Shown one piece after another: positions 14,039 to 55,144 of a stretch of 64,000 nt of DNA (position 1 is the stretch's first letter; every line of letters begins with the position of its first letter). Below the pieces are notes generated by a model, which was not told the origin of the DNA, did not search any database, and was given only the letters and a program-made list of their open reading frames with translations. The stretch comes from Anaerolineae bacterium (lineage in GTDB: Bacteria > Chloroflexota > Anaerolineae > B4-G1 > SLSP01): assembly GCA_034437735.1 (NCBI GenBank), contig DAOTTS010000093.1:27705-91704 (forward strand), written 5' to 3'. Position numbers and translations under genes: made by a program.

Positions 14039-15556
14039 TTACACGTACCGCTCCCGGATATCCGAACTCACATAGTCCAGGATCGCAACCGTAATCGCGA
14101 TAAACCACACCGCGATACCCGCCGAGCGGAACCGGAAGAGACGAATATACTGAATCAGCAGGAAGCCAATCCCCCCGCCCCCCACCAGACCGATCACGGT
14201 CGACATCCGGACGTTGATGTCCCACCGGTAAATCGAGAAGGAGACAAACGGCGGAATCATCTGCGGGATAACGGCAAATGCGATCGTCTGCAACTGATTG
14301 GCGCCGGTAGCCTGAATCGCCTCGATGGGACCGGGGTCGATGCCTTCAATCGCCTCGGAGTAAAGCTTACCCAACGCAGCGATCGTATGCACCGTCAGGG
14401 CCAGGATACCCGCAAAGGGCCCCAACCCCACCCACTGCGTCGCAATAATCGCCCAGATCATCGGCTCAATCGAACGGATAATATTCAGAATGGTGCGGAT
14501 CACATAATAGATCACCATCGTGATCCGGGAGCCGGACATCAAGTTGCGGGCGGCCAAAAAACTGACCGGCACCGCCAACACAATCCCAAACGCCGTCGCC
14601 ATCATGCCGAGAAAGATCGTCTCGATCATCTTCTCAATACTGAGCAGGAGCGGCTCGCTGGGCTTTTGAGCCCCAACCTCCGACGTCTGGCGCGCTTCAA
14701 CGTGGTGGACCTGTTCTCCCTTAGCACTGGGGGGGAGCAATCGATACGGCATTGTGATCGTCGTCTCGAAATCTCCCTGGTCATCGGTCGTCACGGTCAC
14801 GTATTGGCCCTCGTTTCGGACCTGAAACTCGTTGCCGATGGGGTCCTCCCACCAGATCTTGGTCTCGGTGTTGGGTTGAAAGTTTCGCCCCGTGAGCGTC
14901 AGTTTCGTACCGGGGACAATGTTACTGTCCTCATCCAAATCCGAAAGCTCACCGCACGTCGGCTCTGCCTTGAGGTAGGCATCCCCCTCAACCGGTTCCG
15001 GCGGCTCCGGCGGGGTGTCGTCGCACGGCACCTCAATCGGCGCACTGGCTCGCACCGTCTCCACGTCCCGGGTCAGGGCCGCCTCCCAAGGCCAAAGCAC
15101 CTGGCTGAGAATGGGCAGCGTGTCCGAAAGCTCCGTCACGGCTTTATAAAGATCAATTTCGCTGATTTGCCAGCCCAATGCAAAGAACAGCAGCATAATC
15201 AGGAGAAAGGGCGCGATACCAAACCCTTCCATCTGAGAATCTGCGTGACGATACGCGTCAATGACGACCCATACCCAGACCGCCAACGCGCCGAGCACGA
15301 CGAACCCGATAAAGAAGGGCCGCCGGTCAAGCGCCTCCACGAATTTAGCGACCGCCCCAACCTCACGTCGCGCCAGAAGGGAAACACGCCAGGCCAGAAG
15401 ACCGAGAATACTCACCACGGATCCCAACATCAGCAGTCCCCGCTGAATTTGCTTCGCCAGCACCTGTCCGAGCCCCGGAATCACGAGGGAACTCAAGGCA
15501 GCAACCGGCCCCGATACTAAGCTCTTACGATTACGCGCTCTATTGGTCGTCGCCAT
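14039..15556 (-). CDS. phnE: Phosphonate/phosphite-type ABC transporter permease (PhnE family) with extended N-terminal region
   Basis: The C-terminal 260 aa match the PhnE permease fold (EAIQATGANQLQTIAFAVIPQMIPPFVSFSIYRWDINVRMSTVIGLVGGGGIG). The N-terminal roughly 240 aa add about 4 TM helices and a roughly 150-aa extracytoplasmic Ig-like segment. Confidence 0.8.
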   Translation of the reverse strand: MATTNRARNRKSLVSGPVAALSSLVIPGLGQVLAKQIQRGLLMLGSVVSILGLLAWRVSLLARREVGAVAKFVEALDRRPFFIGFVVLGALAVWVWVVIDAYRHADSQMEGFGIAPFLLIMLLFFALGWQISEIDLYKAVTELSDTLPILSQVLWPWEAALTRDVETVRASAPIEVPCDDTPPEPPEPVEGDAYLKAEPTCGELSDLDEDSNIVPGTKLTLTGRNFQPNTETKIWWEDPIGNEFQVRNEGQYVTVTTDDQGDFETTITMPYRLLPPSAKGEQVHHVEARQTSEVGAQKPSEPLLLSIEKMIETIFLGMMATAFGIVLAVPVSFLAARNLMSGSRITMVIYYVIRTILNIIRSIEPMIWAIIATQWVGLGPFAGILALTVHTIAALGKLYSEAIEGIDPGPIEAIQATGANQLQTIAFAVIPQMIPPFVSFSIYRWDINVRMSTVIGLVGGGGIGFLLIQYIRLFRFRSAGIAVWFIAITVAILDYVSSDIRERYV

Positions 15557-18042: not shown

Positions 18043-19740
18043 CTAGAGCATTCGGGTCGGATAAAGCTTTCCCTCAATAAAACCCCGATCCCGATAATAC
18101 TGGCGGGTACCAATCGCCGCAATGACGGCGAGGCCATCGTAACCGGCTCGCGTCGCAACCGACGCCGCCTCTTCAAGCAACTGCGTGCCCAGACCCCGGT
18201 GTTGGACGCCCTCCCCCCGCTCACCGAGTGCCTGCGCAGGACCGTAAATGTGCAGTTCGCGGACCATCGCCGCATTCCGGATCTCTGGCAGCGGCAGCTC
18301 ACGCCGGGGCCGATGAGGTAACGACAATCGCAGGAAGCCCGCCAGTTTTCCGTTCTCGGTCACATATTGCATGAAGTGCTCGGTCGTGACGTCGGTATCA
18401 TAGACCACCGGATCAAGCGTTACCGTATCAAGCGAGGCCGGCTCCCGGCCCCGGATCTCTCGGCAACGGACACACCGGCACTGCAAACCACGCATCGCCA
18501 TCTGCTGCTGAACGATCTGCCGCAGATTGCTTTTGGTCGTCCCGGCAACGATGTAGGGCGCAGGAATATCGCGCATCAAGCGATTGATCCGGCAATAAGG
18601 AGGGACGCTCTGCTTACAGTCAATCATCAGCTCGATCAGATCTGCTTCCGAATAAGGGGCATATTCACCCTCCGTCCAAAGACCGTAGAGTGCCGTATCC
18701 TCTAATAACGCCGTAGGATAGATCTTCAGTTCATCGGGCCGAAACGTCGGGTCCTCCCACAGCTTACGAAAATCCTCCAGGTCCGAAGCCGGCGTCGCGC
18801 CATAGAGGTTTGGCATCCAATGCAAGACAATCTTGAAGCCGCCCAGCCGTAATAGCCGGATAGCGCGTCGTGTATCATCGACGGTATGTCCCCGCCGATT
18901 CATCGCCAGAATCCGATCGTTAAGGCTCTGTGCGCCAAGCTGAACTTTGGTCACGCCGTGGCGGCGGAGTTCGACCACCGCCTCGGGTGATATACAGTCC
19001 GGACGCGTCTCGACCACTAACCCGACGTTCCGGTGCAGGGCGCGCTCATTTCTCTCAAAAGCTTCGTAGAGAGTCGCTGAAGGCGCCTCATTCATCGCGT
19101 CAAAGCACCGGCGCAGGAACCAGCGGCGGTAGCCCTCCGGATAAGCTGACCAGGTTCCGCCGAGAATCAGCAGCTCAACCTTATCAGTGGTGTGACCGAT
19201 GGCCTCCAGGGCCTCGATGCGAACCTGAGTCTGGCGATAGGGATCATACTCATGCTGCATCGCCCGCAAAACACCCGGCTCCCCATCGAGGTAGCTCTTC
19301 GGCGCAGCATCTTGCTCCGGACAGAAGATACAGTTTCCGGGACATGCATAAGGTTCGGTCAACACAGCAACCGGAGCCACACCGGATATCGTCCGGACCG
19401 GACGCCCTTGCAGCTCCCGTTCAATTTTGGAGCTCTTAGGGATCTCCCCGGCCTCCACGAATTCCCGATAGGCCCCCAATAATTGGGACTTGGCATAGGT
19501 CCCATGCTCACGTGGATACCGGCGCAGGACCGCCATAAGGTCCCCACCCTTATTGGGCATTGAGCGCACAGCTCGGAGCACCTTGAGGACCTTGCGGCGT
19601 TCCTTAGGATCGCTCAAATCAATACGTTCAGGTATACCACCTCTAGCCATACGATGATTATACCATGCGCAGCGAAGGGCAACACCCACAAAACGTCGAG
19701 GGGTCCGCATAAATAACGGGAGTTTCATCAAGGTTAGCAC
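18043..19740 (-). CDS. elp3: Elp3-family radical SAM / GNAT tRNA-modification enzyme (bacterial Elongator protein 3 homolog)
   Basis: It has a basic N-terminal region. The radical SAM cysteine motif is YACPGNCIFCPEQ (CX3CX2C in the Elp3-typical N-C-I-F/Y-C-P context). A C-terminal GNAT domain reads VRELHIYGPA...QHRGLGTQLLEEA. The start is uncertain: the GTG at 19740 or the ATG at 19728. Confidence 0.8.
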   Translation of the reverse strand: MLTLMKLPLFMRTPRRFVGVALRCAWYNHRMARGGIPERIDLSDPKERRKVLKVLRAVRSMPNKGGDLMAVLRRYPREHGTYAKSQLLGAYREFVEAGEIPKSSKIERELQGRPVRTISGVAPVAVLTEPYACPGNCIFCPEQDAAPKSYLDGEPGVLRAMQHEYDPYRQTQVRIEALEAIGHTTDKVELLILGGTWSAYPEGYRRWFLRRCFDAMNEAPSATLYEAFERNERALHRNVGLVVETRPDCISPEAVVELRRHGVTKVQLGAQSLNDRILAMNRRGHTVDDTRRAIRLLRLGGFKIVLHWMPNLYGATPASDLEDFRKLWEDPTFRPDELKIYPTALLEDTALYGLWTEGEYAPYSEADLIELMIDCKQSVPPYCRINRLMRDIPAPYIVAGTTKSNLRQIVQQQMAMRGLQCRCVRCREIRGREPASLDTVTLDPVVYDTDVTTEHFMQYVTENGKLAGFLRLSLPHRPRRELPLPEIRNAAMVRELHIYGPAQALGERGEGVQHRGLGTQLLEEAASVATRAGYDGLAVIAAIGTRQYYRDRGFIEGKLYPTRML

Positions 19741-19809
19741 ACCTCACCCTATGCTTCCGTAATCGCTATTTGTCTTGCGGACACAGGATTCTTTGCTATA
19801 CTCTAGACT

Positions 19810-20544
19810 ATGCATTCACAAACAGCTGGGGCACTCAGAGACATCAATCGTGCATTCTACGAAAAGTTCGCCGGCTCTTTCGACGCATCTCGCGCGCCGA
19901 CGGAGCCGGGACTCAAGCGTATTTTTCCCAGGATATCGCCAGGATCTCGGGTGCTGGATCTGGGATGTGGGCACGGGCGGCTTGCTGCCCTGCTTCCCCC
20001 AAACTGTACCTACCTGGGTGTGGACAACGCAGAGGCGATGCTGGCACTGGCCCAGGGTCACGTAGATCAAGAGGCTAAGGCCATTCAGGCTCAATTCATA
20101 GCTCTGGACCTGCTGGATTCGGATTGGGCGATCCACGTTCCCGGATCCTTCGATTGGATCGTGGTGCGCGCGGTATTGCATCACATCCCCGGATATGCGA
20201 ACCGTCGTAACTTGCTGGAGCAGTCCGCCACACTTCTTAACGCAGAGGGGCGCCTCCTCATCGCGAATTGGCAATTCCTCGAGATTCCCCGGCTGCGGCG
20301 CCGCGTGTTACCCTGGTCGGAGGTCGGGCTCAAGCCCACAGCGGTTGAGCCGGGGGATTACCTGCTGGATTGGAGACGAGACGGTTATGGACGTCGTTAC
20401 GTTCACCTCGTCAATGAGTCAGAGACACAGACACTGGCACACGACAGTGGCCTAACCGTTGTCGAGATGTTTCGGGCCGATGGTCACACCAACGACTTAA
20501 CGCTCTATGCCATACTGTCGGGAGCTTCGGGCAACAGCGTGTAG
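19810..20544 (+). CDS. Class I SAM-dependent methyltransferase, Trm9-like
   Basis: Motif I reads VLDLGCGHGRL. The C-terminal DWRRDGYGRRYVHLVNESE...NDLTLY resembles the Trm9 C-terminal RYYH.F..GEL...GNW region. It lies divergent to elp3. Confidence 0.7.
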   Translation: MHSQTAGALRDINRAFYEKFAGSFDASRAPTEPGLKRIFPRISPGSRVLDLGCGHGRLAALLPPNCTYLGVDNAEAMLALAQGHVDQEAKAIQAQFIALDLLDSDWAIHVPGSFDWIVVRAVLHHIPGYANRRNLLEQSATLLNAEGRLLIANWQFLEIPRLRRRVLPWSEVGLKPTAVEPGDYLLDWRRDGYGRRYVHLVNESETQTLAHDSGLTVVEMFRADGHTNDLTLYAILSGASGNSV

Positions 20545-20563: not shown

Positions 20564-22678
20564 TTGTTACACCGTTCAGTCAGAATACTTCGCACAAGAC
20601 GTCTGATCTGGATGCCTGCGCTCCTCCTGGTGAGCCTGGGGTTGATTGCGTGCAGTGCCGGTATATCCCAGCCGTTAATGAGCCTCGGTCCCATCGCAAC
20701 GATCAGCCAAAGAACCGTTGAGCCCCTATCCGCTCTACAAACGCCCGCCCCCCCTCGGGAGCCTGCGGTCAGACTAACGTATGATGAAGCCTCGACCAGC
20801 CTGATGGCAAAAGCTCAGCACTTCCCACCGAACACAAAGCTCGAATTCAAGCTTTGGATCGGCATTCGCCCAATCAAAGTAACTTATTATTGCACAACCG
20901 ACACCTATGGATATTGTGCCCGACCAATGGGGCTGATTAGAGATTACCCAGAGGCTACACACAGCGGGAAGGAACTGATCGCCTCGGCACAAAGCTGTGA
21001 CCATAAGGACCTTAAAGCCTTCAGCCTGCCGATCAGCTTTCGGTCGTCATCTCAGGGAATCAAGCGCTGTGAAGCGACCGCAACCCCTTCCCCCACGTCA
21101 CCTTTGCCCACGTCCACCCCACCCAGCGGCTCCACACCCATCTCTGAGCCCATCGATACGCCGACTGAGAAAACGCCCCCATCGGCGACGCCATCACCAA
21201 CCCCAGGACAAGCGACACAGCCCGCGTTTTGTGTGACGTGCACGCTTACGCCCGCATCAACACCCAGTCCCACCCCAAGCCCATCGATCACCCTGGTTCC
21301 CACACGCGTTCCCGCCAATCCCCATGGTTCTTCCCATACAACGACGCCCACGCCAATCCCTCTCGATAGCCACTTTCCCTACTGGCGTGGCGAATACTTC
21401 GACAACCCCCAACTACGAGGGGAACCGGCGCTGATCCAGGATGACGCCAACCTGGCTTTTAACTGGGGTGAAAACTCTCCCATTCCGGGGGCACTGCCCA
21501 AGAACCAATTTAGCGTGCGCTGGAGTCAGAGATTCGTTATCCGTCAGGAAGGACGCTACACGTTCTATCTGGATGCCGATGACAGTGCGGTGGTCCATCT
21601 GAACGGGGAGACGTTAATGAGTTATCACCTGAACAACCAGCAAGATCACGTCCAGATGGCGACCCGGTATCTCGCTCAAGGGGAAGAGCTCCACGCTGAA
21701 GTGGAGTACGTCGAGCATTGGGCGAACGCAAGCCTCAAATTCTGGTGGGAAGTCGCCACAGAGCCACCGTGCTGGCACGGTCATTATTTTGCCAATGCCG
21801 ACTTAGCAGGCGAGGTCGTCGCGCAAGAGGCGCTTTGCAGCGGCAATATCCGTAAACATTGGGGGACCGCCGACGCTTGGCCACCAACGTTAGGACCGAA
21901 TACGCACTTTTCCACGTGCTGGACCCGTGTCATCGAAGCTCCAATGTCCGACTCTGAGTATCGGCTCTGCCTTTACGTCAGGGACAGCGCCCGCCTATGG
22001 CTTGACCGGACGCTCTTGTTGAACAAACGCAGTATTGACGTCGAACCTCAATTCATATGCAGAGATGTCACCATCAATCCGGACACAGGGGTTCACGTTT
22101 TGCGACTGGACCACTATCGAAAGAGTCAAGGCAATGCGGTGCTGGGACTCTATTTCGTCGAACGCAAGCCCAACAGTCCTTGGACCGGTGCGTATTTTGA
22201 TAATGCTACCCTATCGGGTCCCCCCACCTTGGTGGGAACCGCTCATGAACTCAATATGCCCTCGGCCAAGCAAAGCCTCGATGCACAGGTCAGGGGGCGG
22301 GCATTCTCTTCCTTGTGGCAGAGAGAGGTGACCACGAATAAGGGGATCTATTACTTCTTCGCAAGACACGACGATGGCGTCCTGTTAACCGCAAACAGCG
22401 CGACAATGATCAACGACTGGTATCCTGGTGACATAAGAGAGCGGAAACACACCTATCTAGCAACGGGCGAGGAAGCACTGGATTTGGAGGTCAAGTACTA
22501 TCACGACCATCAGGGTGCTGATCCAAAACTACAGATCTGGTGGGAGAGAGCAACGCCCACCGCGACCGTGACCCCGACGCCCTCTATGACACCAACCCCG
22601 TCCCCCACGTTCCTACCGACCCACACCCCTTCCCTTACACCACAACCAACGATGACGTGCGTGACACCCGTGCCCTGA
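20564..22678 (+). CDS. Secreted protein with three PA14 domains and Pro/Thr/Ser-rich linkers
   Basis: It has a TTG start with an aggagg RBS 7 nt upstream and a signal or lipobox sequence LLLVSLGLIACSAG. Three repeats have the PA14 pattern G.YFDN..L.G.P...........W. The linkers are TPSPTSP-rich. Confidence 0.75.
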   Translation: MLHRSVRILRTRRLIWMPALLLVSLGLIACSAGISQPLMSLGPIATISQRTVEPLSALQTPAPPREPAVRLTYDEASTSLMAKAQHFPPNTKLEFKLWIGIRPIKVTYYCTTDTYGYCARPMGLIRDYPEATHSGKELIASAQSCDHKDLKAFSLPISFRSSSQGIKRCEATATPSPTSPLPTSTPPSGSTPISEPIDTPTEKTPPSATPSPTPGQATQPAFCVTCTLTPASTPSPTPSPSITLVPTRVPANPHGSSHTTTPTPIPLDSHFPYWRGEYFDNPQLRGEPALIQDDANLAFNWGENSPIPGALPKNQFSVRWSQRFVIRQEGRYTFYLDADDSAVVHLNGETLMSYHLNNQQDHVQMATRYLAQGEELHAEVEYVEHWANASLKFWWEVATEPPCWHGHYFANADLAGEVVAQEALCSGNIRKHWGTADAWPPTLGPNTHFSTCWTRVIEAPMSDSEYRLCLYVRDSARLWLDRTLLLNKRSIDVEPQFICRDVTINPDTGVHVLRLDHYRKSQGNAVLGLYFVERKPNSPWTGAYFDNATLSGPPTLVGTAHELNMPSAKQSLDAQVRGRAFSSLWQREVTTNKGIYYFFARHDDGVLLTANSATMINDWYPGDIRERKHTYLATGEEALDLEVKYYHDHQGADPKLQIWWERATPTATVTPTPSMTPTPSPTFLPTHTPSLTPQPTMTCVTPVP

Positions 22679-22700: not shown

Positions 22701-25700
22701 CTACGAGCTGGGCAAAGTCACCTGATAGATCGTGCTGTAGGTATCCTGATAGACGACCTCCAACACCCCTTGTTGAACCAGTGCTACGAATTTTGCCTCA
22801 GCCTCTGGGATCATATAGGCGCGCTCGTACGGAGTAACAATCACATAGGAGACGTCGTAGTCATCAAGGATCTCAGCGGCCTCCACCGGGGATGACCCAT
22901 TGTAGAAATAGCGGACGTCCTGCATTCGTGATTCAACGGTCCCCGCCGGCATAGCACCGCGTTGCTGGACTTGATGCCAACGCCAGGCCGCGACCGTCGG
23001 TAATCCTGTATAAACGCTAATCCGACTCCCCCAGAGATACTCGCGGGCACCGACTGCCTCCATGATCACGGGGCTCCCCTGGACATTCTCCTGGAGCCAA
23101 CGGATTACCTGATAGTCCGCCCAGAGCGAAATATCACTGCCATGCTCGTATTGAGTTGCATATGCCATAAAAACCATGCCGTCGAGTGTGGGAGGCGCTT
23201 CCGCAGCCCATCGATCCTGTGTCTTCGCCGGGATCGCCAAGGCGGGATAAAGACCGGTCCCCAGGATAAGAAGCGACATCACGATCACAGCGACCTCTTC
23301 GACACCCACGCGCTCTGTCTTTCCACCGGTCCAACGGTGAATCATGCGCTCGACAAAGACAGCAGCGCTCAGGCCTAATAACGTCCAGACCTGATACTGA
23401 AACTTAAACACGGTGTTCATCCGTCCAATGTCACCCTGAAGCACGACAATCTCTACCATCAGACTCAAAGCAAGCGCGGAACCGACCCAAATCCACAGGA
23501 GTCTGCGCCTTTGGTTGCGTGGCGAAACGACTTGCAAGGCAGCAAAGAGCCCTAATGGGACGACAATCCATCCGATGGGAGCTTTGAATAATGCAACGGG
23601 CACACTCAAACCCAGCAGCAAGAGGGCTACCGTCACGGCGACGATCCGCCATAATTGAGGTCGATTCTCAGGTGTCTCAAAGTAGGCGAGCCATCGCAGC
23701 CCCTCATGCCACACGCCATAGATGAGCGGAACAAGAAACTGCCCCAGCATCAGGAAGAATACCCCCAAAGGCGTGCGCGTACCCTTCCAAAGCTCAAACG
23801 TCGTATAGGTCACGATATAGTTAGCGACAAAAGGTCGGAATAACAATTCCGCCCCCAAAAACAAGAGAATGGGCGTGATCAGTAAGCGCCCCACCCACGC
23901 CAATGCGGTGGTTAAGGTTACGCGCCGTTCCGAAGAGGCTCCCGTGTCCACCCGAGCAGGAGGTGATAACGTCAAAGTGGGAGCCACTCCGAGAAGAGAA
24001 CCAAACGTCATCAGCACCAGGTACGTGGGATAGTCCCAGGTATTGGTCGCGCGCAAGGCACCGGCGACCAGCACAGCAAGCCCTAGACTACTCACCGGCC
24101 TGGGAAAGAACCGTTTCCACCCCGTGCTCTTCAACCGAACCGTGCCCAGCCCCCATTGCAGGGCGATGGCAAGCGCAACGTACGTCAGCGGCAGCGCCAT
24201 CATGTGCGCGTGAAGATCCGCATAGAGGAAAGTAAACGCTGGGAACTCATTGATCGCCCCGACCTCTCCCTCGGCAAACGGAATCAACCGCGTCGCATCC
24301 CAATACCACCATTCCGGTCGGAAGTTGAGTCCATGTCCCTCGATGACGACCTTCCAAAGGCCGACGAGTGCCGACACAACCTCGGGATATCCAGGAATCA
24401 AGCTCTCAAACTCGATACCGCCCACATCGACAAAGCCCTCAAAAATCAGCTGCGCTTCCCCAAGATTGCCGAGAATCACAATCAGGACCACGCCCCAGAG
24501 CCCGGCGCGTATCGATCGCCGGTCGCCCCCACCGGCAAGATTCGAAGCGACCGTATAGGCCCCCAGTCCTGTCATAGCCAAGAGCGAAGGCACCGCCAGA
24601 TTATAAGCAATGCTGGGAACAATCCCCAGTAACTCGGTCAATCCACCAAATAGGACGAAGCCGAAGTAATAGTAATTCATTTGGCCGCCGGCAAACCAGG
24701 GATCATAGGGTGGAAACCACGTAGACTTCATCACCGCATTGAAATAAGCGAAGTCCATTGGTTTCTCGCCGCCGCTCACCGGATGCCAAAGATCAGGATT
24801 GAGGTAACGCACCCCCACCCAGGCAAGATAGAGGCCCAAGAAGATGAGCTCGATCCACAGGATCTCGCGCCATCGCGAGCGGATAAAACGCACAAACTGC
24901 CGGCGGTTAAGCCAGAGGATAGTGCCACTGACCCCCAAACCCAGGAAGAGAAGACCCGCCAGTGTCGAGCGCACGCTGGGAACGATGTGGAGACTGGCCA
25001 AAAGCCACCCGACGTAGGCCCACACGAGCAGCCCTACCACTTTGGCCAACCCATAACCCCGCACTCGGAGGGCTGGCAGCATAGCATAGAGCCAGGGAAA
25101 AGCCATCCACCCAAGTACCAGCAAGAGCCCCCACCACAGCAGGACGGACAAGGCCGAGAACCGGTTATGGAGGGCCTCTGTGTTGAAGAGGTCAGACCAG
25201 GTACCGCCGGTCGCTTGTTCAATCTGAAGCTTAGGATCCAAAAGAAGGGAATCAGCCTTTGACTCAACATCCCCAAGAATGCGATTCCGTGTCGCTTCCC
25301 GAGGCGTCATCCACTGGACATCCTCCAGAAGCGAAGGAGGCAGCTGAGCCTCGGCGAGTTCGCGTGAGTACGTGGGAGTTTTCGCAAAGATTAGCACCGT
25401 CGGATGATCGTAGACGCTAAAAGCCTCTTCAGCCAGCGGAAAAGGCACTGAGGACTTGGCCTTGTTACTGTACTTCGCATTGACAAGATGAAAGGGTATT
25501 TCCTGATCCGGGAATTGCAGAGGCCCTAAGGAAGGATAGGAGACAAACTCAGCCCGGAGTTCATAGCCCAGATCCCCGCTGAACAAGGCTCGGTAATAAG
25601 CCGTGGTCAGGGGATACCGCATCGGCAGCCGTGGAATTGAGGCGTAGAGCCGGTTAGAGGAAAGCGCGATGAAGTCAGCCTCATCGAGCCAGTCAAGGAG

Positions 25701-27719
25701 ATACTGTCGCTTCTCCTCGGTATCGTTGTCATAATTATTCATCTGACCGGTAGGACTTGAGCTCAGATCCTGATACCAATTCCAGAACGGATCCTTGCCA
25801 TCGATCCGCAAAGGCAAAGGATCGTCCCAATGTTCGTTAGCAATCACGGACGTGCGCAGCGTCACGGCTTGGCCCCGCAGGAGAGAGAGTTCGACCTTGG
25901 CATATTCGCCGGCAGAGACCCTCACCGGCGGGTCGAACGTCATCCGAAGCGATCGAACATTGGGATCGTTGAAATTCAGGGAAGCGACCGCAGGCTGCCC
26001 ATTGACCGTAACTTCGATTTCACGAGGGCCGGGCACCCCCTTGGGATCGATCTTATTGACCTGCGCGGCCTCTACCCAGACAGTATCCGCTACCTCAACG
26101 CCCCCACCCACCCCAGACGTCACGACGGAGAGTTCCGTATTTGGCCTTATGGGTATCTGCAACTGATCTTTGGTCATCAGATCCAGCGTGACCGAGGTCG
26201 GGATATTGTCGTACATCCAGCGCGAAGCCTTCACCCGGGTAACGGGCTTCAGATAAATATGCAAGAATGCCCAGGCCCATAAAGCCGTCGTCAGAAAAAT
26301 CAGAGCCGGCAAAACACAAAGGACGTAACGCCCATAGGTTCTCCACCGCGCTTTCGCCACTGTTCCACGCGCGCCAACCCGAGACCCCCATGCCAGCTCA
26401 AGTAGCAGCACGGCGGCAAAAAGCGCAAAGAACGGATAGACCGGCAGCAGATAACGCATTGATTTGACCCACTGGGTCGATTGGTAAAGAAAGAACCCCG
26501 TACTCCAAAGCCACGGAATGAGAATGCGATGGGGAAGTGTGCGCCGGACAGAATCGGTCCACATTTTAACCAAGCGCCAGCCTAACCATGCCCACCCGAT
26601 GCAGGCCGTCACGCCTAGGGGTAATCCCATTCCCCAGAAGACCATATTGCGCAGCGGGAAGAGGATCGGGGCTCTTGCCGTCCACTGATGCCCATAAGGC
26701 ACATCCTGCAACCCACTCATCAGCCTACGAATATCCTTGATCGTCGCAATCCACTGAAGGTTAGGACTGACACCAAAGAAACCGGGGCCCATAAAAGCAT
26801 AAGGCTGTGCGATCCGAAACGCGAGAGCGGCGACAATACCGCTACCTATCAGCAAGAGTATCCGACGTAACGATAATCGGAAATGCGGACCTTCTCCAGA
26901 ATCAAAATGCATAACGCCCGTCAACCCGACGATAAGCGAAAGTGGCCACACGCTGATCTTCGAAGCAACCGCTAGGCCGGTCATAAGACCGGCGAGAAGA
27001 ATCAACCCACCAGGTTTGCGCTTGCCCGCAGCCAAAACGCACAGCAAGAGCGTCCATACCACAAAGACCGTCGCAAAACTATCGACAACAAAGAAATGGG
27101 CGTGCTGAATGGGGAGCACGGCAAACGCATAAAGCCCACCGGCTAGAAGAGAGAGCCGATTGCCAAAGAGAGAGCGGGCCAGCAGGATCAATCCCAACAA
27201 CGCAGCCACATCAGCCAGCGCAGAAAGGCCCCGACCTACGTGATGAATACCGGCGTATCCGGTGTAGGTGCCCGGCAAGCAAGCACCCGCATCTGCCGGC
27301 GTTTGACCACACAACACAGCATCGGTCCAGCGCCCCACCGCTCGGGTGACGAAGATCGGCAGCGTCCCATAGACGTAATTCACAAACTGATCGTAATTCA
27401 TAGGATTGATGGGGGAATCAGCGGTATCCCAGTAGAGACGCAAGCAGGCACCGAAATCCTCACAAATCGGCGCCCCGCTCTCTGCCTTCGCCTCACCGGG
27501 AAAGCGAAGCGTCCCTGCAACCATCGTGAGGTAACGCTCGTCCGGGTGCAGGTGGGTCCCCTCCCCCCAATCCAGGTTGACAAAACGGACGAGAGCGCCA
27601 AGGACCAGCAGAACCACCAGGGCCAATCGATAGCGAACTTGTCGATTCGGTCCTTGAGGAGTACTCATTGATTGAGGATGCCTAAACGGAGATTCTGTTA
27701 TCAAATGTTGTTCGGTCAT
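22701..27719 (-). CDS. Very large (1,672 aa) polytopic membrane protein, GT-C superfamily-like (PMT/ArnT-like N-terminal module plus additional TM modules)
   Basis: The first loop reads VRFVNLDWGEGTHLHPDERYLTMV (a DE motif after TM1, as in GT39/GT83). More than 25 TM helices are predicted. The C-terminal domain is soluble. Confidence 0.7.
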   Translation of the reverse strand: MTEQHLITESPFRHPQSMSTPQGPNRQVRYRLALVVLLVLGALVRFVNLDWGEGTHLHPDERYLTMVAGTLRFPGEAKAESGAPICEDFGACLRLYWDTADSPINPMNYDQFVNYVYGTLPIFVTRAVGRWTDAVLCGQTPADAGACLPGTYTGYAGIHHVGRGLSALADVAALLGLILLARSLFGNRLSLLAGGLYAFAVLPIQHAHFFVVDSFATVFVVWTLLLCVLAAGKRKPGGLILLAGLMTGLAVASKISVWPLSLIVGLTGVMHFDSGEGPHFRLSLRRILLLIGSGIVAALAFRIAQPYAFMGPGFFGVSPNLQWIATIKDIRRLMSGLQDVPYGHQWTARAPILFPLRNMVFWGMGLPLGVTACIGWAWLGWRLVKMWTDSVRRTLPHRILIPWLWSTGFFLYQSTQWVKSMRYLLPVYPFFALFAAVLLLELAWGSRVGARGTVAKARWRTYGRYVLCVLPALIFLTTALWAWAFLHIYLKPVTRVKASRWMYDNIPTSVTLDLMTKDQLQIPIRPNTELSVVTSGVGGGVEVADTVWVEAAQVNKIDPKGVPGPREIEVTVNGQPAVASLNFNDPNVRSLRMTFDPPVRVSAGEYAKVELSLLRGQAVTLRTSVIANEHWDDPLPLRIDGKDPFWNWYQDLSSSPTGQMNNYDNDTEEKRQYLLDWLDEADFIALSSNRLYASIPRLPMRYPLTTAYYRALFSGDLGYELRAEFVSYPSLGPLQFPDQEIPFHLVNAKYSNKAKSSVPFPLAEEAFSVYDHPTVLIFAKTPTYSRELAEAQLPPSLLEDVQWMTPREATRNRILGDVESKADSLLLDPKLQIEQATGGTWSDLFNTEALHNRFSALSVLLWWGLLLVLGWMAFPWLYAMLPALRVRGYGLAKVVGLLVWAYVGWLLASLHIVPSVRSTLAGLLFLGLGVSGTILWLNRRQFVRFIRSRWREILWIELIFLGLYLAWVGVRYLNPDLWHPVSGGEKPMDFAYFNAVMKSTWFPPYDPWFAGGQMNYYYFGFVLFGGLTELLGIVPSIAYNLAVPSLLAMTGLGAYTVASNLAGGGDRRSIRAGLWGVVLIVILGNLGEAQLIFEGFVDVGGIEFESLIPGYPEVVSALVGLWKVVIEGHGLNFRPEWWYWDATRLIPFAEGEVGAINEFPAFTFLYADLHAHMMALPLTYVALAIALQWGLGTVRLKSTGWKRFFPRPVSSLGLAVLVAGALRATNTWDYPTYLVLMTFGSLLGVAPTLTLSPPARVDTGASSERRVTLTTALAWVGRLLITPILLFLGAELLFRPFVANYIVTYTTFELWKGTRTPLGVFFLMLGQFLVPLIYGVWHEGLRWLAYFETPENRPQLWRIVAVTVALLLLGLSVPVALFKAPIGWIVVPLGLFAALQVVSPRNQRRRLLWIWVGSALALSLMVEIVVLQGDIGRMNTVFKFQYQVWTLLGLSAAVFVERMIHRWTGGKTERVGVEEVAVIVMSLLILGTGLYPALAIPAKTQDRWAAEAPPTLDGMVFMAYATQYEHGSDISLWADYQVIRWLQENVQGSPVIMEAVGAREYLWGSRISVYTGLPTVAAWRWHQVQQRGAMPAGTVESRMQDVRYFYNGSSPVEAAEILDDYDVSYVIVTPYERAYMIPEAEAKFVALVQQGVLEVVYQDTYSTIYQVTLPSS

Positions 27720-51824: not shown

Positions 51825-53564
51825 ATGCCAGTTATCCCCTCAGCGATACCCATGGAGATGGAGCTAGAATGCGGAAGTTGCGGACACCGCCAGCCTTTCG
51901 TGCTTCCCACTCCTGCGTGCGAACAGTGCGGACACGATTGGATGGAGGTTAAGTATAGTCCAGATAGGATCCAGGAGCTATGGCCAGATCTCCTTCAAAC
52001 GCGCCCGTTTACAATGTGGCGGTATCGTGAACTTCTACCGCTCCGAAACGAAGAGTACCAGATATCAATGGGAGAGGGAGGAACGCCCCTCCTCCACGCT
52101 AATAACCTGGGCATGATGCTTGGAGCACCTAGCATCTATATCAAGGATGAAAGACAAAACCCCACGAACTCTTTCAAAGATCGCCAGGCGTCTCTGGTTA
52201 TTTCGTTAATGAAAGAAGCCGCAGTCAAAGAGCTAGTCGTTGCCTCAACGGGCAATGTGGCCATCTCCTACTCAGCTTACTCCTCTTACGCAGGCATTAA
52301 ACTTTGGACGTTTATTCCGAGCCTCGTTCCCCCTGAGAAGATGCGAGAGATTGCCATCTATGGCAGTGAGGTCATCAAGGTTACCGACACCTATGACGCT
52401 ACCAAAAAGGTAGCAGCAGAATTTGCCGAACACAAGGGCATTCCGGCCGATCGCGGGATCCGCGATGTCGGAACTCGAGAGAGCATGAAGACGATCGGCT
52501 TTGAAATTGCCGAGCAACTTGGGCTAGAGCTGGGACCCTCAGAAAATGGAGCCCCATGGCGTGCACCGGACTGGTATATTCAAGCCGTGAGCGGTGGTAT
52601 GGGACCGGTAGGGTTCTGGAAAGGGTATACCGAGCTCTACGAAATTGGGCTCGTCGATCGCTTGCCGAAGTTGGCACTGGTTCAGGCTGAAGGGTGTGCG
52701 CCGATGGTCAATTCTTATCAGCTTGGATTATCTAAGGCTGAACCGGTATCCGATCCTGACACTCGGGTCATTACGATTGCAACGGGTTATCCGGGCCCAG
52801 CTTATGAATACCTCCAGTCTGTCGTCAGCCAGCATGGTGGCGCTTTTGTAGCAGCTTCTGACGAAGAGATCTTCCGCGCATTGCATCTCGTCGCAAAAAT
52901 GGAGGGACTATCAGTTGAACCGGCCGCGGCAACTGCATTCGCAGGACTGTTTAAACTTCTCAATCAAAACATCATTAAGAAGGATGAAACAGTGGTCGTC
53001 AATTGCTCGGGCCATACATTCCCAGTCGAGAAATTTCTCCTCGACGATGACTGGGTCAAGGTAGTTTCAACGCGCACAAACCGCAAGTCTACAAGCTCAG
53101 AGCCTACGGTACCGGCGAAATCCAAGGTCGGTCGCACCCCCACTGAGGGACTGCTGGGTGCGCTGGACCAGCTCGACGCACGCGTCAAGTGCGTCGCTAT
53201 CATTGAGGATAACCCCGACGCCACCCGACTATTGAGACGAATCTTGCAGACGCGAGGGAACTATCGTATTATCGAGGCGTACGATGGGCGAGAAGGTCTT
53301 GAGTTAATCCGCTCAGAGCAGCCAGATCTGGTATTACTGGATCTTATGATGCCTGATATCGACGGATTTGAGGTTATCGAAAAGCTGAAAAAAGACCGCC
53401 AATTTGAGGATCTGCCGATTATTGTAATCACTGCCAAGCAACTATCTCGACAGGAAAAAGAACGCCTCCAAGGGCAGATCAAGATGCTGCTCGAAAAGGG
53501 TTCGTTCATGGATGATGACCTACTTTCGGGAATTAAGGGACTCCTAGGATCTGAGGCCGGCTAA
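51825..53564 (+). CDS. Threonine-synthase-like PLP-dependent enzyme (fold type II) with N-terminal zinc ribbon, fused to a C-terminal CheY-like receiver domain
   Basis: The zinc ribbon is CGSCGH...CEQCGH. The PLP-lysine motif is NSFKDRQAS and a glycine-rich loop reads VSGGMGPVG. The REC domain spans roughly residues 455-575 (IIEDNPD...LLDLMMPDIDG...IVITAK). Confidence 0.8.
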   Translation: MPVIPSAIPMEMELECGSCGHRQPFVLPTPACEQCGHDWMEVKYSPDRIQELWPDLLQTRPFTMWRYRELLPLRNEEYQISMGEGGTPLLHANNLGMMLGAPSIYIKDERQNPTNSFKDRQASLVISLMKEAAVKELVVASTGNVAISYSAYSSYAGIKLWTFIPSLVPPEKMREIAIYGSEVIKVTDTYDATKKVAAEFAEHKGIPADRGIRDVGTRESMKTIGFEIAEQLGLELGPSENGAPWRAPDWYIQAVSGGMGPVGFWKGYTELYEIGLVDRLPKLALVQAEGCAPMVNSYQLGLSKAEPVSDPDTRVITIATGYPGPAYEYLQSVVSQHGGAFVAASDEEIFRALHLVAKMEGLSVEPAAATAFAGLFKLLNQNIIKKDETVVVNCSGHTFPVEKFLLDDDWVKVVSTRTNRKSTSSEPTVPAKSKVGRTPTEGLLGALDQLDARVKCVAIIEDNPDATRLLRRILQTRGNYRIIEAYDGREGLELIRSEQPDLVLLDLMMPDIDGFEVIEKLKKDRQFEDLPIIVITAKQLSRQEKERLQGQIKMLLEKGSFMDDDLLSGIKGLLGSEAG

Positions 53565-53588: not shown

Positions 53589-54860
53589 ATGACCACTATT
53601 CTTTACGTTGAGGATGATGTCTCAAGTCAGAGATTGGTTGAACGTATCTTAAGAGTCGAAGGTTTCGACGTCCGACTGGCGGACGATGGGATCAGTGCCA
53701 TAGAGATCGCTCAACAGGATACACCCGATCTTATCTTGATGGACATCAATATGAGTGGGTTGGATGGATATGAAGTCACCACTCGCTTGAGAACCGTTCC
53801 CGGTTTAGAGAAGACGCCCATCATCGCCGTCACTGCAGCAACGCTGCGGGGAGACCGGGAACGAGCCATCGTTGCCGGATGTACGGGGTATATTGCCAAG
53901 CCTATCGACGTGGATACCTTTGCCGATCAGGTGCGAAGTTACCTGGTCGGTTTGCAAGAACAGGTTGACTCCCCGGAGGAACGCGCTCAGTACCTTCTGG
54001 AGTACAATCAACGGCTCGTGAACCGACTGGAGGAAAAGGTTCGTGAACTTCAGAACGCAAATGCCGAGCTTCAGCGCGTTGAAAAGATGAAGTCTGACTT
54101 CGTCGTACTCGCCGGGCACGAGTTGCGCACTCCTCTGACCGTGATCTACGGTTATCTCCAGATTTTAATGGCGAATCCCAATATACCTGGCGAGGCGGAG
54201 GTGGAAGGTACGCCGACCAACCTGCTAATGAGAGTGGCAAAAGGCGTAGAGCGACTCAGTGATATGATTCAAGACATCCTCAATGTCTCCCTGATCGATG
54301 CCGATCGGCTGGAACTCTCTCAAGAACCGGTTTTTCTGAAATCGATTGTGCAGTCTGTACTGAATAACCTGCAAAACTTCGGCCCGTCCCGCGATCTCGT
54401 GTTCGATTTAGGACCGGGCCTCAAAGATATTCCCGTGATTCAAGGGGACCCGCGCCGACTGCACCAGGCCATAGGTAACATCATCGGAAACGCCATCAAA
54501 TATACCCCCAATGGGGGGACAGTACGTATCAACGCCGAGAATTTAGACGATGTCGTTCATCTCTGGGTTAAGGATTCAGGGGTCGGCATCCCGAAAGATG
54601 AGTTACCGCACATATTCGATAGATTTTACGTGCTAGAGGACACCTCCTTTCACAGCTCGAGCAAGACGGCTTTCAAAGGTGGGGGGTTGGGATTGGGACT
54701 AACGGTCTCCCAGGGCATTATTGAAGCCCACGATGGCAGGGTTTGGGCAGAAAGCCCTGGGCAGGATGAGGCTGAGCTTCCAGGAAGCACTTTCCACATC
54801 TTGTTACCCATTGGAAACCCTTTTGATCTCATGGAGGAAAAGGCTAAAAACCGAACCTGA
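53589..54860 (+). CDS. Hybrid sensor kinase: N-terminal receiver domain + HisKA + HATPase_c
   Basis: The REC domain reads ILYVEDD...ILMDINMSGLDG...VTAA. A coiled coil follows. The H-box reads LAGHELRTPL and the N and G boxes read GNAIKYT...DSGVGIP...GGGLGLGL. Confidence 0.85.
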   Translation: MTTILYVEDDVSSQRLVERILRVEGFDVRLADDGISAIEIAQQDTPDLILMDINMSGLDGYEVTTRLRTVPGLEKTPIIAVTAATLRGDRERAIVAGCTGYIAKPIDVDTFADQVRSYLVGLQEQVDSPEERAQYLLEYNQRLVNRLEEKVRELQNANAELQRVEKMKSDFVVLAGHELRTPLTVIYGYLQILMANPNIPGEAEVEGTPTNLLMRVAKGVERLSDMIQDILNVSLIDADRLELSQEPVFLKSIVQSVLNNLQNFGPSRDLVFDLGPGLKDIPVIQGDPRRLHQAIGNIIGNAIKYTPNGGTVRINAENLDDVVHLWVKDSGVGIPKDELPHIFDRFYVLEDTSFHSSSKTAFKGGGLGLGLTVSQGIIEAHDGRVWAESPGQDEAELPGSTFHILLPIGNPFDLMEEKAKNRT

Positions 54861-54941: not shown

Positions 54942-55015
54942 GGTGGATGTGGCCCAACGGTTAGGGCACCTGTCTGTGGAACAGGAGACTGTGGGTTCGA
55001 ATCCCATCATCCACC
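54942..55015 (+). tRNA. tRNA-His (anticodon GTG)
   Basis: The cloverleaf has G-1 plus the acceptor GTGGATG/CATCCAC and the D-stem GCCC/GGGC. The anticodon stem is CCTGT/ACAGG with loop CTGTGGA, and the T-arm is GTGGG-TTCGAAT-CCCAT. The discriminator is C. Confidence 0.9.
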
Positions 55016-55060
55016 CCTAAACAGGCTGGGCTTATCGGGTCCAGCCGTTTTAATCGATGT

Positions 55061-55134
55061 GCCCCCGTAGCTCAATCGGATAGAGTGGCTGGCTTCGAAC
55101 CAGTTGGTTGCGCGTTCAAGTCGCGCCGGGGGCT
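55061..55134 (+). tRNA. tRNA-Arg (anticodon TCG)
   Basis: The acceptor is GCCCCCG/CGGGGGC and the D-arm is GCTC-AATCGGATA-GAGT. The anticodon stem is GCTGG/CCAGT with loop CTTCGAA, and the T-arm is GCGCG-TTCAAGT-CGCGC. Confidence 0.85.
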
Positions 55135-55144
55135 CAAACGGAAG

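Follow-up and report, generated by a model that had tools for sequence, protein, structure and literature searches.

A 64,000-nt stretch of contig DAOTTS010000093.1 from an Anaerolineae bacterium (hereafter the window) carries a gene for Elp3, a radical S-adenosylmethionine (SAM) enzyme with a C-terminal lysine acetyltransferase (KAT) domain of the GNAT type, next to a gene for a Trm9-like class I SAM-dependent methyltransferase. An earlier note on this DNA had described an Elp3 gene lying head-to-head with a class I methyltransferase gene, and both open reading frames (ORFs; 565 and 244 amino acids, respectively) were recovered in this arrangement (Table 1). We propose that the pair is a self-contained, divergently transcribed module that would modify the wobble uridine (U34) of tRNA. 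Elp3 alone, without other Elongator subunits, would use a SAM-derived radical and acetyl-CoA to introduce a carboxymethyl group at C5, yielding 5-carboxymethyluridine (cm5U34). Subsequently, the neighbouring methyltransferase would methyl-esterify the cm5U carboxylate with SAM to give 5-methoxycarbonylmethyluridine (mcm5U), the reaction carried out by Trm9-Trm112 in yeast and Haloferax. Should U34 also be thiolated in this organism, the 2-thio derivative mcm5s2U would result.

For archaeal Elp3 and Elongator, cm5U34 formation by this chemistry is established (PMC6367351, PMC7663514), and the same activity is expected here because of orthology. The esterification is expected because active-site residues are conserved and the two genes are linked. 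That Elp3 and the methyltransferase are functionally coupled is very probable. From the sequence comparisons described below, it appears likely that the module makes cm5U34 and then mcm5U34 on tRNA, and we consider mcm5U the probable product of the pair.

TABLE 1 Position of the Elp3/methyltransferase pair, its functional motifs, and the corresponding gene pair of Dehalococcoides mccartyi
Feature	Position	Strand	Basis
Elp3 gene, radical-SAM domain and C-terminal KAT/GNAT domain	18043..19740	-	TIGR01211, 5l7j alignment
Acetyl-CoA-binding motif QHRGLG of the KAT domain, residues 513-518	18187..18204	-	Motif located; DmcElp3 alignment
Zn site CRCVRC, residues 421-426	18463..18480	-	Alignment with CRCIRC of DmcElp3
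Radical-SAM [4Fe-4S] motif CPGNCIFC (CX3CX2C), residues 133-140	19321..19344	-	Motif located in sequence
Basic N-terminal extension of Elp3, residues 31-112	19405..19650	-	Composition; 5l7j alignment starts at residue 115
Divergent intergenic region	19651..19809	.	Sequence read
Trm9-like class I SAM-dependent methyltransferase, 244 aa	19810..20544	+	Pfam, PDB, profile, hhalign, AF2
N-terminal motif YEKFAGSFDASR; Y17, R28 = Trm9 Y18, R29	19858..19893	+	MAFFT
SAM-binding motif I LDLGCGHG and acidic D72 (= Trm9 D72)	19954..20025	+	PDB and MAFFT alignments
LHHIP (H124/H125 = Trm9 H115/H116) and ANWQF (W154 = W145)	20176..20277	+	PDB and MAFFT alignments
Beta-hairpin DYLLDW...RRYVHL; W188 = W168, R196 = R241, V198 for Y243	20356..20409	+	hhalign, MAFFT, AF2
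C-terminal ADGHTNDLTLYA; T231 in the Trm9 N271 column	20476..20511	+	MAFFT
D. mccartyi methyltransferase	L161:5283-5957	-
D. mccartyi Elp3	L161:6001-7380	+

Identification of Elp3

Judged by its sequence, the minus-strand ORF at 18043..19740 unambiguously encodes Elp3. It matched the NCBIfam ELP3 model TIGR01211 with 490.6 bits (cutoff 350) over model positions 44-517 of 522, and the Pfam models Radical_SAM and Radical_SAM_C both scored above their cutoffs, with Acetyltransf_1 slightly below (18.1 vs 20.7). The best solved relative is Elp3 from Dehalococcoides mccartyi (DmcElp3, 5l7j; E 8.5e-112, ~440 residues aligned), and the alignment continues through the KAT domain to residue 554, including the motif QHRGLG. 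Alignments with archaeal, mouse (322 bits), and yeast (288 bits) Elp3 were also obtained. The model score, the motif CPGNCIFC, and the KAT-domain alignment together bear out the earlier description of an Elp3 with a CX3CX2C radical-SAM cluster and a C-terminal GNAT domain.

The functional motifs are well conserved. The three cysteines of CPGNCIFC are invariant across 35 bacterial Elp3 sequences, in which Q, H, G, L, and G of QHRGLG are likewise invariant or nearly so. The site CRCVRC, which is conserved in these 35 sequences too, corresponds to the three-cysteine zinc site described as typical of bacterial and archaeal Elp3 (PMC6367351). The N-terminal extension comprises approximately 80 residues with 18 lysines and arginines vs 11 aspartates and glutamates, and is missing from DmcElp3; a role in tRNA binding has been assigned to the Elp3 N-terminus (PMC6367351, PMC7663514). 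The product name of TIGR01211, 'tRNA uridine(34) 5-carboxymethylaminomethyl modification' enzyme, has been carried into many GenBank records. According to the literature, in contrast, the Elp3 product is 5-carboxymethyluridine (PMC6367351).

For the start of the Elp3 gene, GTG 19740 and ATG 19650 (M31) were compared, the latter giving a protein of 535 amino acids. As the alignments with most close homologues begin at residue 26-31, the ATG is probably the real start, and the divergent spacer would therefore measure 159 bp instead of 69 bp. Each ATG is preceded, at a distance of 7 nt, by a -10-like hexamer, which is TATAAT (minus strand) for the ATG at 19650 and TATACT (19797-19802) for that at 19810. 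No Shine-Dalgarno sequence was found before either gene when the intergenic sequence was read. This combination suggests leaderless transcripts from back-to-back promoters. A scan of the region for promoter and terminator consensus sequences returned nothing above shuffled expectation. The short head-to-head spacer would permit co-regulation of the two genes.

Relationship of the methyltransferase to Trm9

The Pfam matches of the methyltransferase are all generic for class I enzymes (Methyltransf_23, _12, _25, _31, and _11), and none of the NCBIfam models, equivalogs included, passed its cutoff. A total of 755 relatives were found at E<=1e-3, including one database protein with 100% identity. 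Neither gene of the pair is a chance ORF. At E<=1e-30, the family comprises 897 clusters at 50% identity. The identical protein is labelled 'tRNA (uracil-5-)-methyltransferase TRM9' by JGI, and NCBI names the family members only 'class I SAM-dependent methyltransferase'.

Structural relatives were sought with the single sequence and with two profiles, A1 from 38 close Anaerolineae homologues and A2 from 69 homologues of many phyla. The single-sequence search of the PDB gave Trm9 from Yarrowia lipolytica (5cm2_Z) as the best match, tied with the uncharacterised 3d2l, in an alignment spanning RRYVHL. With profile A2, 5cm2_Z was the best single-domain match (75.4 bits, next 61.7) and, with profile positions 25-227 aligned, the most extensively covered of the PDB matches. 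Two higher totals belong to two-domain plant enzymes, whose best single domain reached ~46 bits. Direct comparison of Yarrowia Trm9 with the 69-member family by hhalign gave a probability of 99.7% (E 1.4e-25, 178 columns, 25% identity). The AlphaFold2 (AF2) model shows a Rossmann-type fold (pLDDT 92). Fold searches do not discriminate further, since N-, O-, and C-methyltransferases match equally well.

By sequence profile, the closest characterised relative thus appears to be Trm9, an assignment that is good but not airtight. It agrees with the earlier note on the methyltransferase side, and a grouping with a named small-molecule methyltransferase family was not seen, given that no NCBIfam model scored above cutoff and Trm9 headed the single-domain A2 matches. 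An assignment as a CmoM-like enzyme was rejected because the similarity is clearly below that to Trm9: 8joz_A scored 32.8 bits vs 41.7 for Trm9 with profile A1, and was outside the top 60 with A2.

Some family members have an unusual architecture. In P0279, P0287, and P0363, which belong to three separate 50%-identity clusters, a DUF559 domain (Vsr-like endonuclease, PF04480) interrupts the methyltransferase domain after motif I and before the HH/W region, and this looks like a mobile endonuclease insertion. P0281 (429 aa) is a fusion of the family methyltransferase with a small C-terminal GNAT acetyltransferase domain.

Conservation of functional Trm9 residues

Ten Trm9 residues were tied to function by Létoquart et al. 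(PMC4678810); the evidence is mutagenesis for nine of them and docking alone for Y18. These residues were mapped with MAFFT and hhalign to the numbering of Saccharomyces cerevisiae Trm9 (ScTrm9), and conservation was taken over the 69 homologues. The ScTrm9 copy, one residue out of register, aligned to the Yarrowia chain with 242 bits; the mapping also rests on the PDB-derived Yarrowia sequence.

Eight of the ten residues are kept, namely Y18, R29, D72, H115, H116, W145, W168, and R241, corresponding to Y17, R28, D72, H124, H125, W154, W188, and R196 in the window protein. All eight reach at least 90% conservation in the family, with H125, W154, and R196 invariant and Y17, R28, H124, and W188 conserved to >=90%. 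Y18 and R29 of Trm9 have been proposed to bind the cm5U carboxylate and the tRNA (PMC4678810). The motif RRYVHLV, in which the earlier note had seen a resemblance to Trm9, occupies residues 195-201, opposite RYRYYHLY in the alignment with Yarrowia Trm9. In the AF2 model, the beta-hairpin region has its strands at 183-188 and 194-199. Trm9-like RYYH or RYYR together with the asparagine is retained in some Patescibacteria members and in the D. mccartyi protein.

Linkage of the two genes across bacteria

The neighbourhood of the pair was explored in both directions. In a methyltransferase-seeded scan with one genome per species (80 loci, L001-L080), Elp3 was found within 10 kb of the methyltransferase in 65 loci. 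Among the 73 loci with adequate flank, Elp3 was divergent and adjacent in 55, nearby (within 10 kb) in 10, and absent in 8; the divergent adjacent pairs are separated by a median of 221 bp between match ends. The second scan covered 80 loci on metagenome contigs, with a bacterial Elp3 alignment as the only query. Here, 56 loci carried an upstream ORF of the methyltransferase family on the opposite strand with >100 bits, four further methyltransferase ORFs were cut by contig ends, and 10 of the 20 negatives have <1 kb upstream. The pair is hence present in ~86% of the Elp3-seeded loci with adequate flank (~60 of ~70). Co-conservation of the two genes, on which the earlier note's reading depended, is accordingly seen in both search directions and over several phyla.

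According to their labels, the loci come from Chloroflexota (Anaerolineae, Thermoflexus, Ardenticatenales, and Aggregatilineales), Patescibacteria (Dojka-, Pace-, and Saccharibacteria), Acidobacteriota, Myxococcota, Fermentibacteria, and Spirochaetaceae. In Chloroflexota, Patescibacteria, and Acidobacteriota, the module is more common than the earlier description of bacterial Elp3 as sporadic would suggest. When the ORFs of at least 80 amino acids from the 80 genome loci were clustered, no third recurrent gene was found, the next family occurring in nine loci. As the pair is seen in at least six phyla with no other shared neighbour, its adjacency has outlasted all other synteny. The closest genome locus (L001, 'uncultured Anaerolineales') carries a methyltransferase with 73% identity to that of the window. 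Pairwise identities of Elp3 and the methyltransferase correlate with r = 0.89 over 48 loci. Co-inheritance could account for this, but some correlation is to be expected between any two genes of the same genomes.

Five loci (L018, L057, L066, L078, and L080) are labelled Nitrosomonadaceae, Pseudomonadales, or Gammaproteobacteria, and three of them (L018, L057, and L080) also have Elp3. Their proteins group with members from Chloroflexota or Patescibacteria, and the five may be mis-binned contigs of metagenome-assembled genomes.

The pair in Dehalococcoides mccartyi

The gene of the crystallised DmcElp3 has a partner of the same kind. In D. mccartyi CP019867.1, a class I methyltransferase of 224 amino acids is encoded 44 bp upstream of Elp3 in divergent orientation, and the same arrangement was found on a related Dehalococcoidia contig. 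The methyltransferase aligned over its full length with the family (hhalign probability 99.6%) and contains the motifs FRHR, SFHHL, TVWN, LVPWKS, and KRYYRLY as well as an asparagine near the C-terminus. No mention of this neighbour was found in the accessible Elp3 literature.

DmcElp3 (5l7j, 6ia6) is the closest solved structure to the window Elp3, and differs in that it lacks the basic N-terminal extension. The weak tRNA binding and weak activity of DmcElp3 have been connected with its short N-terminus (PMC7663514), and tRNA-triggered acetyl-CoA hydrolysis is the only activity shown for it (PMC6367351, PMC7663514). The D. mccartyi locus also has QueH and a small GNAT gene a few kb away.

Evaluation of the proposed pathway

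Several observations weigh against the assignment of the pair to mcm5U formation. Profile A1 placed Trm9 only fourth among the PDB matches. Two of the ten functional Trm9 residues are substituted. Y243 is replaced by V198; the column has C in 34 family members, V in 24, A in 7, and Y in 3, with Y occurring in some Patescibacteria and, by a separate alignment, in the D. mccartyi protein. N271, which has been proposed to recognise the uracil ring (PMC4678810), is replaced by T231, in a loop of uncertain alignment where 35 of 70 homologues have asparagine and the others G, S, or T. Between ~11% and 14% of the loci with adequate flank have no partner gene nearby in the two scans. A 2020 review stated that there was no direct evidence of xcm5U derivatives in bacteria, and no bacterium has been reported to contain cm5U or mcm5U (PMC7663514). 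Finally, no Trm112 gene is linked to the pair, although Trm9 requires Trm112 in eukaryotes and in Haloferax.

Regarding Trm112, the window and the loci L001-L080 were searched with a regular expression for the Zn-knuckle and GIP features and by phmmer with an E. coli YcaR sequence. No Trm112-like ORF was found, a weak negative, as copies elsewhere in these genomes are possible. Nor did Pfam reveal a Trm112 fusion in the inspected family members that have N-terminal extensions of ~70 amino acids or are longer overall. Because no such ORF lies near the pair, the bacterial Trm9-like enzyme may work without Trm112.

The substitutions bear on the possibility that the methyltransferase belongs to the Elp3 pathway and catalyses another reaction, on a different atom of the uridine, a neighbouring nucleotide, or another Elp3-derived intermediate. 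Linkage by itself does not fix the chemistry, N-, O-, and C-methyltransferases are equally good fold matches, and the downstream chemistry of cm5U is not fully understood even in Haloferax. Moreover, the two exchanged Trm9 residues contact the substrate, Y243 being replaced by V or C, and N271 by T, S, or G in many members. All proposed carboxylate holders (R29, R241, and Y18), the catalytic H116, and the stacking W145 are nevertheless kept, and the members from Patescibacteria and D. mccartyi retain RYYH or RYYR and the asparagine, as in Trm9. We therefore consider a different chemistry unlikely. The complete two-gene mcm5U pathway put forward by the earlier note is supported by all of the computational tests that it suggested, in that the Elp3 identity, the likeness to Trm9, and the linkage speak for it. 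As caveats, two Trm9 residues are substituted and mcm5U itself is a predicted product.

Action on a substrate other than tRNA, for example with Elp3 as an acyltransferase of proteins or small molecules and the methyltransferase acting on the same product, is very improbable. Elp3 was once proposed to be a protein acetyltransferase, and the tRNA-dependent activity of DmcElp3 in vitro is weak (PMC7663514). On the other hand, acetyl-CoA hydrolysis by Elp3 from bacteria, archaea, and eukaryotes depends on tRNA as the trigger (PMC6367351), the window Elp3 carries the basic extension associated with tRNA binding, and its partner resembles a tRNA methyltransferase. It is even harder to believe that the gene next to Elp3 encodes a housekeeping or small-molecule methyltransferase with no relation to it and lies there by chance. 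Such a view could draw on the purely generic Pfam and NCBIfam matches and on the NCBI name, yet the two genes stay adjacent in at least six phyla with no other neighbour in common, and a search seeded with Elp3 recovers the same methyltransferase family at the frequency given above. Chance adjacency of the pair is effectively excluded.

Comparison with known systems

With mcm5U formation as the preferred function, the pair can be regarded as the bacterial version of a two-step pathway that is already known. Its interest lies in how widely it occurs, in the neighbour of DmcElp3, in a Trm9-like enzyme that may be independent of Trm112, and in the mcm5U predicted for bacteria. The eukaryotic system of Elongator and Trm9-Trm112 (or ALKBH8-TRMT112) comprises the same two catalytic families in the same predicted order, with the radical-SAM and KAT domains of Elp3 and the SAM- and substrate-binding residues of Trm9 shared. 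Unlike in eukaryotes, the bacterial genes are physically paired, with no linked Trm112, and none of Elp1, 2, 4, 5, or 6 is encoded near them; stand-alone Elp3 without these subunits has already been reported for archaea and bacteria. Compared with ScTrm9, the window protein lacks a large insertion specific to the S. cerevisiae enzyme between W168 and R241, in addition to the exchanges of Y243 and N271.

The archaeal system (Haloferax volcanii HVO_2888/HVO_1032) likewise combines a stand-alone Elp3 with a Trm9-type methyltransferase. Haloferax Trm9-Trm112 has been shown to form mcm5U, and the Elp3 and Trm9 genes are clustered in Sulfolobus solfataricus. The present system differs in its bacterial host and in the missing link to Trm112, which Haloferax Trm9 needs in vivo. 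Archaeal Trm9 orthologues have been reported in Sulfolobales and Halobacteriales only, whereas the bacterial family is broad, as its cluster count indicates.

Two bacterial pathways also act on U34. MnmE-MnmG(-MnmC), which forms 5-carboxymethylaminomethyluridine (cmnm5U) and 5-methylaminomethyluridine (mnm5U), decorates C5 as well, but with unrelated enzymes (a GTPase and an FAD/folate enzyme) and another side chain. E. coli CmoM, which converts uridine 5-oxyacetic acid (cmo5U) to its methyl ester (mcmo5U), is a class I methyltransferase that also esterifies a side-chain carboxyl group of U34; its similarity to the window family is much weaker, and its partners are CmoA and CmoB instead of Elp3.

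The bacterial pair appears to have gone unremarked, and the accessible literature on bacteria runs counter to the present findings. The 2020 review confined bacterial Elp3 to one specific anaerobic clade, Dehalococcoides spp. (PMC7663514), the group that determined the Trm9-Trm112 structure stated in a 2017 review that there are no bacterial genes resembling Trm112-dependent methyltransferases, and a 2026 paper described Elp3 in 'numerous bacteria' with no mention of a methyltransferase partner. No description of a bacterial Elp3/Trm9-like pair was found in full-text literature searches, subscription-only papers being outside their scope.

Genomic context

The rest of the window is an ordinary bacterial chromosome with genes for a phosphonate ABC transporter, SmpB, Ser/Thr kinases and FHA proteins, glycogen metabolism, a PA14 protein, a DUF2298 membrane protein, and an alpha-2-macroglobulin. 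Apart from the pair, no genes for tRNA modification were found in its 64,000 nt. Genes for tRNA-His(GUG) and tRNA-Arg(UCG) lie in tandem at 54943-55135. The latter tRNA is among those with an unidentified U34 modification in Haloferax, and it is a candidate substrate of the module because U34 is present and the Haloferax counterpart is modified at this position.

Directly downstream of the methyltransferase, a secreted PA14 protein of 704 amino acids with long Pro/Thr/Ser-rich linkers is encoded at 20564-22678 (+), and beside it, at 22701-27719 (-), a membrane protein of 1672 amino acids with PMT_2 and DUF2298 domains. This neighbourhood recurs in ~9 related loci only. In the phosphonate-type ABC permease at 14039-15556 (-; 505 aa), the transporter domain is confined to residues 329-496, and no Pfam model matches the large N-terminal part, for which an extracytoplasmic segment is predicted. 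The gene at 51825-53564 (+) encodes a pyridoxal phosphate-dependent (PALP) enzyme that carries a response-regulator receiver domain at its C-terminus, and a receiver/histidine-kinase hybrid follows at 53589-54860.

Implications

What becomes of the Elp3 product in bacteria is a recognised gap in knowledge. Here, the pair predicts mcm5U34 in bacterial tRNA, and it points to a previously unremarked methyltransferase gene beside the crystallised DmcElp3. The module also supplies Elp3 variants with the basic N-terminal extension that is absent from DmcElp3, and a system of two proteins may be easier to reconstitute than Elongator with Trm9-Trm112. The family relationships suggest that many entries named 'class I SAM-dependent methyltransferase' could be re-annotated. 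The nucleosides mcm5U and mcm5s2U have been regarded as restricted to eukaryotes and a small number of archaea; if the proposed pathway is correct, they would be found in large bacterial lineages. Chances seem evenly balanced that such lineages, including Chloroflexota with Dehalococcoides, many Patescibacteria, Acidobacteriota, and others, make mcm5U or mcm5s2U by a Trm112-free two-gene module, maybe instead of MnmEG.

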